Source: Escherichia coli (GTDB lineage Bacteria; Pseudomonadota; Gammaproteobacteria; Enterobacterales; Enterobacteriaceae). From it: a DNA stretch of 64,000 bases. How positions within the stretch are numbered: the stretch's first letter is position 1; the number at the start of each line of letters is the position of its first letter. The notes under the pieces are model-generated. The model did not search any database and had not been told where the DNA came from. It saw only the letters and a list, made by a program, of their open reading frames with translations. Position numbers and translations under genes: made by a program. The stretch lies in assembly GCF_003334335.1 (NCBI RefSeq), contig NZ_QOWQ01000020.1; one strand, written 5' to 3'. Positions 7,310-7,403 of the stretch are shown one piece after another.

Positions 7310-7403
7310 AAAATAAATATATTCTGAAAAAATATGCCGACTCTTGCATGAGAGTGGGCATATTGCCATGCTGACCGGAGACTCATACAAGGATGTAAAA
7401 TTT

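Follow-up and report, generated by a model that had tools for sequence, protein, structure and literature searches.

A conserved RNA stem-loop between rarD and yigG of Escherichia coli, a probable transcript-boundary structure at the edge of an acquired cassette

By a classical rule, a stem-loop that stabilises an mRNA from its 5' end has its stem within about 0–4 nt of that end. The 5'-terminal stabilising stem-loops of the ompA type are reportedly those described by Emory, Bouvet and Belasco in 1992. Structures of a second kind lie at the other end of the message: Rho-terminated transcripts carry a stable stem-loop that has no U-rich tail, with the terminus directly downstream and with protection from 3'-exonucleases (Dar and Sorek, 2018, NAR 46:6797). 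Here we describe an inverted repeat between rarD and yigG that shares features with both. It lies on a 64,000-nt stretch of Escherichia coli DNA, the whole of which we call the window.

From 5800 to 9300, the window has the same sequence as E. coli K-12 MG1655 (100% identity). Coordinates were converted as NC_000913.3 position = 4010597 − window x, and the window plus strand is the K-12 minus strand. The gene order around the repeat is pldA (−), yigI (+), rarD (+, 6419–7309), yigG (+, 7404–7784), yigF (+, 7798–8178) and corA (−, 8221–9171). The features that define the setting are the following.

6419–7309, plus strand: rarD, a core gene upstream of the hairpin, at which its mRNA ends
7327–7332, plus strand: A6 tract adjoining the stem; its last two A (7331–7332) are the first two stem bases, and at least 5 A are present in 14 of 14 homologues
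7331–7364, plus strand: conserved stem-loop with an 8-bp outer stem, a G·G mismatch, a 5–6-bp inner stem and a 4–6-nt loop, defined by repeat finder, folding, covariation and covariance model
7404–8178, plus strand: yigG (7404–7784) and yigF (7798–8178), an AT-rich cassette of 33–35% GC with the hairpin at its left end

Structure and covariation of the repeat

Read from the window sequence, 7331–7364 on the plus strand is AATATGCC-G-ACTCT TGCATG AGAGT-G-GGCATATT. The repeat finder returned arms of 14 nt each that are complementary at 13 positions (93%), with a single G·G mismatch and a 6-nt spacer or loop. The hairpin starts 22 nt past the rarD stop (7309), and its end is 39 nt from the yigG ATG (7404). 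Sequence, arms and coordinates are those of the interrupted inverted repeat named in the original prediction, which put it about 40 bp before the yigG start and described an A-tract on its 5' side and none of T on its 3' side; the A6 tract and the 3' flank GCCATGCTG agree with that description.

Folding of both strands as RNA, which had been proposed as a check, gave a stable structure on each. The plus strand folds at −18.9 kcal/mol (z = −6.2, with none of 200 shuffles as low), with an additional U·G pair that leaves a 4-nt loop, and the minus strand at −15.1 kcal/mol (z = −5.8, from shuffles of the same 34 nt). Folding energy by itself is only modestly above chance and is not decisive. Local 36-nt folds at or below −18 kcal/mol number 24 on the plus strand and 31 on the minus strand of the 64-kb window, and dinucleotide shuffles give 10–17 per strand. 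Hairpins of like energy are thus only about 1.5–2 times commoner in the window than in shuffles, as might be expected if the repeat were a chance palindrome without function.

To assess conservation we used 14 distinct spacer versions (alignment A2), drawn from several E. coli alleles, E. marmotae, E. albertii, E. whittamii, Superficieibacter, Intestinirhabdus, Salmonella (two versions), Citrobacter and two metagenomic types. Standard pairs fill 89% of the helix cells in these homologues, compared with 42–54% when the 3' partner columns are slid by 1–3. Both sides change at 7 of the 15 pairs, double changes occur in 20 cells, and the observed pairing score was reached by none of 500 shuffles. 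The same helix was predicted by RNAalifold without prior helix input. Among homologues the inner stem ACTCT/AGAGT is replaced by GCTCT/AGAGC, CTCCCC/GGGGAG or ATTACT/AGTAAT, and the outer stem AATATGCC/GGCATATT by AAGATGCC/GGCATCTT or AATATCCCC/GGGGATATT, all of these exchanges being compensatory; the outer-arm swaps are T-A to G-C in one locus (L093) and G-C to C-G in another (L077).

We accept the inverted repeat as a genuine RNA hairpin that evolution has maintained, on the strength of its conservation with covariation and not of its energy. An RNA structure was among the options in the original prediction, and covariation, RNAalifold and the stronger plus-strand fold in most homologues all back it. 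A chance palindrome is contradicted by compensatory substitutions that are spread over at least five genera and that no shuffle matched, as well as by an RNA 3' end mapped at the stem of the rarD transcript; we regard it as exceedingly improbable. A search of 5700–9600 with Rfam covariance models returned no relevant match at E-values up to 1.

The plus strand gives the more stable fold in 12 of the 14 homologues, and the minus strand in Superficieibacter and Intestinirhabdus. In the seven Escherichia-type rows (six named Escherichia strains and the metagenome contig L091), G·U cells outside the loop-closing pair number 7 on the plus strand and 0 on the minus strand, where these pairs would be A·C mismatches. 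The counts over all 14 rows are 12 (plus) and 9 (minus), part of the nine coming from misaligned distant sequences. As judged from the alignment, G·U bias and stability point with moderate strength to a sense-strand RNA.

The alignment also bears on the operator that had been proposed for this repeat, that is, a DNA site of the form AATATGCC-N18-GGCATATT bound by a dimeric regulator of yigG. Identical outer half-sites in 10 of the 14 homologues speak for such a site, as does its overlap with the likely promoter and start region of yigG. An operator would be expected to conserve the sequence of its half-sites and to have related sites elsewhere; what we found were pairing-preserving double changes at 7 of 15 positions. 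The inner arms are swapped for unrelated complementary sequences (for example ACTCT/AGAGT to CTCCCC/GGGGAG), two homologues (L093 and L077) shift their outer arms in a compensatory manner, the site is unique in the window even when 3 mismatches are allowed and is single-copy in E. coli genomes, and the cassette has no regulator gene. An operator is unlikely, and we give it very little weight.

The yigGF cassette and its distribution

The hairpin belongs to the left end of a horizontally acquired yigGF cassette, to which it is strictly linked in the sampled loci. A covariance model built from alignment A2 matches each of the 20 loci that contain yigG or a remnant of it, matches none of the 75 that lack it, and has a single match over the 64-kb window. 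By BLAST, the hairpin block is present in 3925 of 5426 E. coli genomes, with a median of 1 place per carrying genome, and a 301-nt query across the rarD–yigG junction has a full match in 2977 of 5413. A search for the same motif elsewhere in the genome had also been suggested; the motif is single-copy per genome, and a half-site search of the window (up to 3 mismatches) returned only the site itself. Since there is one copy per genome, the hairpin is not a dispersed repeat.

The GC content of yigGF is 33–35%, compared with about 51–53% in its neighbours, and the borders at the rarD and corA stops are sharp. In a published list, yigF/yigG is one of 78 'promoter islands', classed as alien and with predicted starts on both strands. 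The cassette contains an H-NS-repressed spurious intragenic promoter (Warman, 2020), and the literature places it in a silenced extended protein-occupancy domain (EPOD). Its right boundary carries a counterpart of the 7331–7364 hairpin.

8185–8209, shared by both strands: hairpin common to the 3' ends of yigF (+) and corA (−), with TRS termini at 4002381 (−) and 4002419 (+) and an Adams Term-seq end at 4002383 (−)

Among 80 rarD loci of Enterobacteriaceae, most genera have rarD and corA tail-to-tail and 27–160 bp apart. A gap without yigGF holds other hairpins, which are REP-like, of the CCCTCTCC/GGAGAGGG type, or a clean A/T-flanked bidirectional terminator. An ancestral rarD/corA terminator kept on the rarD side was rejected in view of these unrelated hairpins and of the strict co-occurrence with yigG. 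An integron attC-like site or other recombination site was dropped, as no feature supported it. In Intestinirhabdus, about 350 bp of other repeats lie between the rarD stop and the hairpin, and the spacing to the yigG homologue is kept. Given this layout, protection of the rarD 3' end cannot be the sole selected role of the hairpin.

The rarD–corA gap (window 7310–8220; loci L001–L004 and L010–L085) is a cassette hotspot. In E. coli it holds yigGF, or YPO3983-family and DUF943 genes, or a hypothetical gene together with a corA 3' fragment, and in Salmonella arizonae and diarizonae, Pluralibacter and others, unrelated inserts of 1.2–2 kb lie between rarD and corA. Four alternatives were compared at this position. 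The first (L001) is STEC-type, diverges ahead of the rarD stop and has an unrelated hairpin; the second (L002) carries the YPO3983-family/DUF943 pair and retains the hairpin and a 5' yigG remnant; the third (L003) has IS1 exactly inside the hairpin loop; and the fourth (L004) has divergent yigG alleles. The IS1 copy, in strain YZ22PE244, is at L003 3151/3152 (= window 7350/7351); in this strain yigG has been deleted and yigF has lost its 5' part. Homologous exchange in the flanking core genes explains the cassette variants.

YigG is 45–79% identical among relatives and YigF mostly 83–89% (46–70% in the two most divergent loci; alignment A1), while RarD is at least 82% and CorA at least 90% identical in the same relatives; YigG evolves much faster than YigF. 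Several discrete yigG alleles exist within E. coli. The fast change of YigG suggests diversifying selection or allele exchange.

Two neighbouring RNA features were noted on the way. At window 8146–8216 on the plus strand (K-12 4002451–4002381, minus), there is a possible RNA of about 70 nt from the yigF 3' end, bounded by a Thomason start at 4002451, as relayed by TRS, and the terminus at 4002381. Reads in the yigF 3' UTR exceed those in the CDS more than 10-fold, and the Adams Term-seq peak at 4002383 has a score of 45779. The last nucleotides of this RNA (about 8211–8216) would overlap the corA transcript in antisense at its 3' end (TRS terminus = window 8178). At 9280–9332 on the minus strand, the corA leader contains a pair of adjacent hairpins, downstream of the small ORF ysgD, and TRS (PMC10687069) has a 'Primary' ysgD 3' terminus at 4001321, at these hairpins. 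They look like a leader attenuator for corA.

Transcript ends and starts around the hairpin

Two published features place the end of rarD transcription at and just beyond the hairpin.

7363–7372, plus strand: peak of the rarD primary 3' terminus (K-12 4003225–4003234, dominant 4003230 = window 7367), coinciding with the conserved flank TTGYCATGCT
7436, plus strand: centre of a bicyclomycin-sensitive (Rho-dependent) termination region (K-12 4003161, minus strand, inside yigG; Adams, 2021, Supplementary file 2)

In LB RNAtag-seq data, TRS (Nat Commun 2023, PMC10687069; Supplementary Data 3, 4) assigns rarD a 'Primary' 3' terminus 3 nt past the stem. The TRS table gives the same hairpin fold at this terminus, with a longest U-run of 2–3, and read density in the 59-nt rarD 3' UTR equals that in the CDS (PMC10687069). 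The terminus ranks 1544 and is significant in 2 of 3 libraries (PMC10687069), a weak signal by the TRS measures; we also call it weak because Adams 2021 Term-seq has no 3' end at 40032xx on either strand. The Rho score (bicyclomycin ratio) at 4003161 is 4.0 (p = 4.6e-11), obtained in 800-nt windows that locate the region to within a few hundred nt (Adams, 2021), and its centre is about 70 nt downstream of the rarD 3' end. As to a C-rich, G-poor rut region just past the hairpin, the C/G ratio is 1.1 at 7365–7462 and 1.5–1.8 at 7405–7502 and 7525–7622, a modest rise of C over G.

The original prediction held that the repeat is not a plus-strand intrinsic terminator for rarD, and our results agree. 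The stem is stable and contains GC, but a U-tract sought within about 8–10 nt 3' of it on the plus strand is absent, the tail reading GCCAUGCUG, or AUAUUGCC past the GC core. The T-tail score is 0.15–1.13, compared with 4.55 for the pldA terminator, and the tail is U-poor in 14 of 14 homologues. With the U-tract missing, such a terminator is unlikely. The locus has instead the arrangement of a protective 3' stem-loop: the rarD 3' end (window 7367) lies directly past a stem without a U-tail, and read-through increases on Rho inhibition, as seen at coarse resolution (Adams, 2021). Evidence against a protective stem comes from the silent Term-seq, the weak TRS end, the coarsely located Rho region and the modest C-over-G rise. 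Moreover, exonuclease blocking does not account for the A-tract in 14 of 14 homologues or for the near-invariant flanks; these flanks and the Intestinirhabdus layout together show that more than protection of the rarD 3' end is involved.

The layout of stem and U-tract that is lacking on the plus strand is found on the minus strand, where the stem AAUAUGCC...GGCAUAUU runs directly into UUUUCAGAAUAU. A minus-strand terminator blocking antisense transcription into rarD had been among the earlier suggestions; it is viable insofar as stem and T-tract are kept in 14 of 14 homologues, but no 3' end lies there in two 3'-end lists. Such an element, an intrinsic terminator or two-way insulator, would stop antisense transcripts short of rarD; possible sources of these are corA read-through and spurious promoters within the AT-rich yigGF 'promoter island'. 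Directly past the stem is UUUUUUCAGAAUAU; each of the 14 homologues keeps at least 5 T here, while the interior of the stem is variable. The T-tail score of 3.2 falls between those of the mapped corA terminator (2.3) and the pldA terminator (4.55), and the d-score of −16 is close to corA's −9, a score that uses modern energy parameters, is uncalibrated and is good for relative comparison only. The stronger minus-strand fold in Superficieibacter and Intestinirhabdus, the listing of yigF/yigG as a promoter island with predicted starts on both strands and H-NS-repressed spurious promoters inside, and the promoter-like minus-strand sites that a promoter scan placed within yigG and yigF also fit this reading.

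Other observations count against it. K-12 has no plus-strand 3' end at 40032xx in Adams 2021 Term-seq or TRS LB RNAtag-seq, where the region is silenced, which makes this a weak negative, and corA read-through is already over by 4002485–4002638, about 600 nt ahead of the hairpin. G·U pairs favour the plus strand in the Escherichia-type rows, and the two bases beside the GC core on the minus strand are both A, in an AUAU context that is a poorer tail than a canonical proximal U-run. The simple consensus promoter/terminator scan missed the hairpin on both strands because of its internal mismatch. We hold antisense termination as the main explanation to be doubtful. It is compatible with a plus-strand boundary structure as a second function, and likely has a secondary role of this kind, in which the hairpin may end antisense transcripts.

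On its other side, the hairpin lies in the putative leader of yigGF, for which two further features are relevant.

7318–7323, plus strand: TATATT, a −10-like hexamer and candidate yigG promoter in E. coli, 7 nt before the stem and with an AT-tract (7306–7312) upstream
7385–7396, plus strand: ATACAAGGATGT over the yigG Shine-Dalgarno, an exact match to RUACARGGAUGU found once in the window, with 0.03 expected

The primary start site of yigG–yigF in Salmonella SL1344 is at 4181589 (Ramachandran et al., 2014; PMC3963941, supplementary file 13). The SL1344 promoter sequence matches the sampled Salmonella loci exactly, so that +1 falls 13 nt upstream of the homologous stem, with TATTAT as −10. The source of this −10 in Salmonella and Citrobacter (L086 2468–2484; L087; L094) is a 17-nt insertion, CGCGACTATTATTCTAA, right past the rarD stop, and the TATAAT that is shared with other genera makes up +1 to +6 there. 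TATAWT is present in 14 of 14 homologues, 7–8 nt ahead of the stem, with T1, A2, T3 and T6 invariant. AT-tracts activate cryptic −10 promoter elements (Warman, 2020), and TATATT may be the yigG promoter in E. coli. Thomason 2015 start sites, as relayed by TRS (PMC10687069), include none within 150 nt upstream of the rarD terminus, and the SMRT-Cappable-seq and Cappable-seq supplements have no entries for the rarD–yigG region. The missing E. coli start site is consistent with silence of the cassette in laboratory culture.

Several other readings of the spacer were set aside. A sigma-70 promoter with TTGCCA (7363–7368) as −35 was dropped for want of a conserved −10. The conserved ATG at 7368 was likewise discounted as the start of an upstream ORF or of an N-terminal extension, as the frame is not conserved and Salmonella has a stop after 4 codons. 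The conserved 5' flank has what we take to be a loose resemblance to an IHF site or an RcsB box, and this idea was not kept. Long YigG annotations (138–152 aa) begin inside the hairpin, at TTG 7344 or at a Salmonella ATG in the 5' arm (L086 2501). These starts are probably mis-calls, which we judge from the mapped start site and the conserved Shine-Dalgarno, and the 126-aa form fits; the start-codon calls inside the hairpin are thereby corrected.

Modelled folds of the leader predict that the hairpin is an independent domain and that the Shine-Dalgarno region is unstructured and open. The motif RUACARGGAUGU is, we assume, the CsrA SELEX consensus. Within 7385–7396, UACA and UGUA can pair into a 4-bp stem that displays AGGA; a further GGA is at 7377–7379, and GGAUGU is retained in Escherichia and Salmonella homologues. 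CsrA-type translational control of yigG at 7385–7396 is possible on these motif grounds.

The hairpin might accordingly be viewed as part of a dedicated yigGF leader element, in which the stem-loop and its flanks (TATAWT-CTGAAAAA ... TTGYCATGCT) were selected mainly for control of yigGF. The element would be a platform for a protein or sRNA, or a stability determinant, perhaps with a CsrA-type site, and the rarD 3' end would be a by-product. In keeping with this, it is yigG, not the rarD stop, that the hairpin accompanies in Intestinirhabdus, conservation of the flanks far exceeds that of the remaining spacer and of YigG (45–79% identical), the Salmonella start site is 13 nt upstream of the stem, the match to RUACARGGAUGU at 7385–7396 is exact where 0.03 are expected by chance, and yigG is regulated under chlorine stress in Salmonella. 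The hairpin is, however, clear of the Shine-Dalgarno and start codon, no alternative fold is predicted, and its loop is without GGA. Nor is there an Rfam family match, or an E. coli start site in the Thomason data relayed by TRS, and the stem interior varies freely, so that a ligand could read only shape or flanks. Selection mainly for yigGF control is a tentative proposal, and the platform or stability role within it is equally so.

Rather unlikely, in our view, is a broader combination of these elements, an undescribed yigGF leader module with a consensus CsrA site that is also a two-way insulator carried by the cassette. If this were true, such a module would allow an AT-rich, H-NS-silenced 'promoter island' to lie between two convergent core genes and leave both undisturbed.

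A probable transcript boundary and its described relatives

We consider it fairly probable that 7331–7364 is a plus-strand RNA stem-loop that serves as a transcript-boundary structure at the left end of the acquired yigGF cassette. In K-12, rarD transcripts would read through the hairpin because it has no U-tract, and Rho would stop them slightly further on, inside the silenced yigG. Exonucleases working from 3' to 5' would then trim back and stall at the stem, so that the steady-state rarD end comes to lie 3 nt beyond the hairpin. The yigGF promoter would fall within the 20–40 nt between the rarD stop and the stem, and the hairpin would also be the first structured element of the yigGF leader, with the ribosome-binding site left free; there it may influence yigGF mRNA stability or expression. 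The rarD 3' end 3 nt past the stem, the membership in the yigGF cassette and the position in the Salmonella yigGF 5' leader are points that the original prediction lacked.

As a transcript-boundary structure, the hairpin is an ordinary element of its kind and not a new kind of regulator. Its value for annotation is that it accounts for the rarD mRNA end despite the missing U-tract. The yigGF unit comes with a boundary structure of its own at each end, 7331–7364 mirroring the yigF/corA hairpin at 8185–8209. The locus is an example of a silenced acquired cassette between convergent core genes, each neighbour of which keeps a defined 3' end, and it opens no new mechanism.

Like REP/BIME elements, the repeat is an imperfect intergenic palindrome past a stop codon, and REP-type elements fill the rarD–corA gap in Citrobacter and Enterobacter. 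Unlike them, 7331–7364 is single-copy where REP elements have many copies, is without the REP consensus and has an AT-rich base. With intrinsic terminators it shares a GC-containing stem and an A-tract on one side, and the canonical layout of stem and U-tract is found on its minus strand. It differs from them in having no plus-strand U-tract and in lying between co-directional genes, rarD and yigG, not convergent ones; the minus strand offers neither an annotated gene to stop nor a mapped 3' end. A true A/T-flanked bidirectional terminator is found in the rarD/corA gap of related genera, for example AAAAAAGGAGCCGAAGCTCCTTTTTT in Klebsiella.

The ompA-type stabilisers resemble the locus in having a strong hairpin near the mRNA 5' end that does not occlude the ribosome-binding site, whereas in Salmonella 13 unpaired nt precede the stem, outside the 0–4 nt range of the classical rule. 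In common with the stem-loops of Dar and Sorek (2018), the hairpin is a stable stem without a U-tail, with a precise end a few nt on and Rho-sensitive read-through beyond. It departs from them in its origin, since 7331–7364 comes from an inserted foreign cassette and not from the ancestral flank of rarD, and in its second location, since the same hairpin is also in the leader of the next operon.
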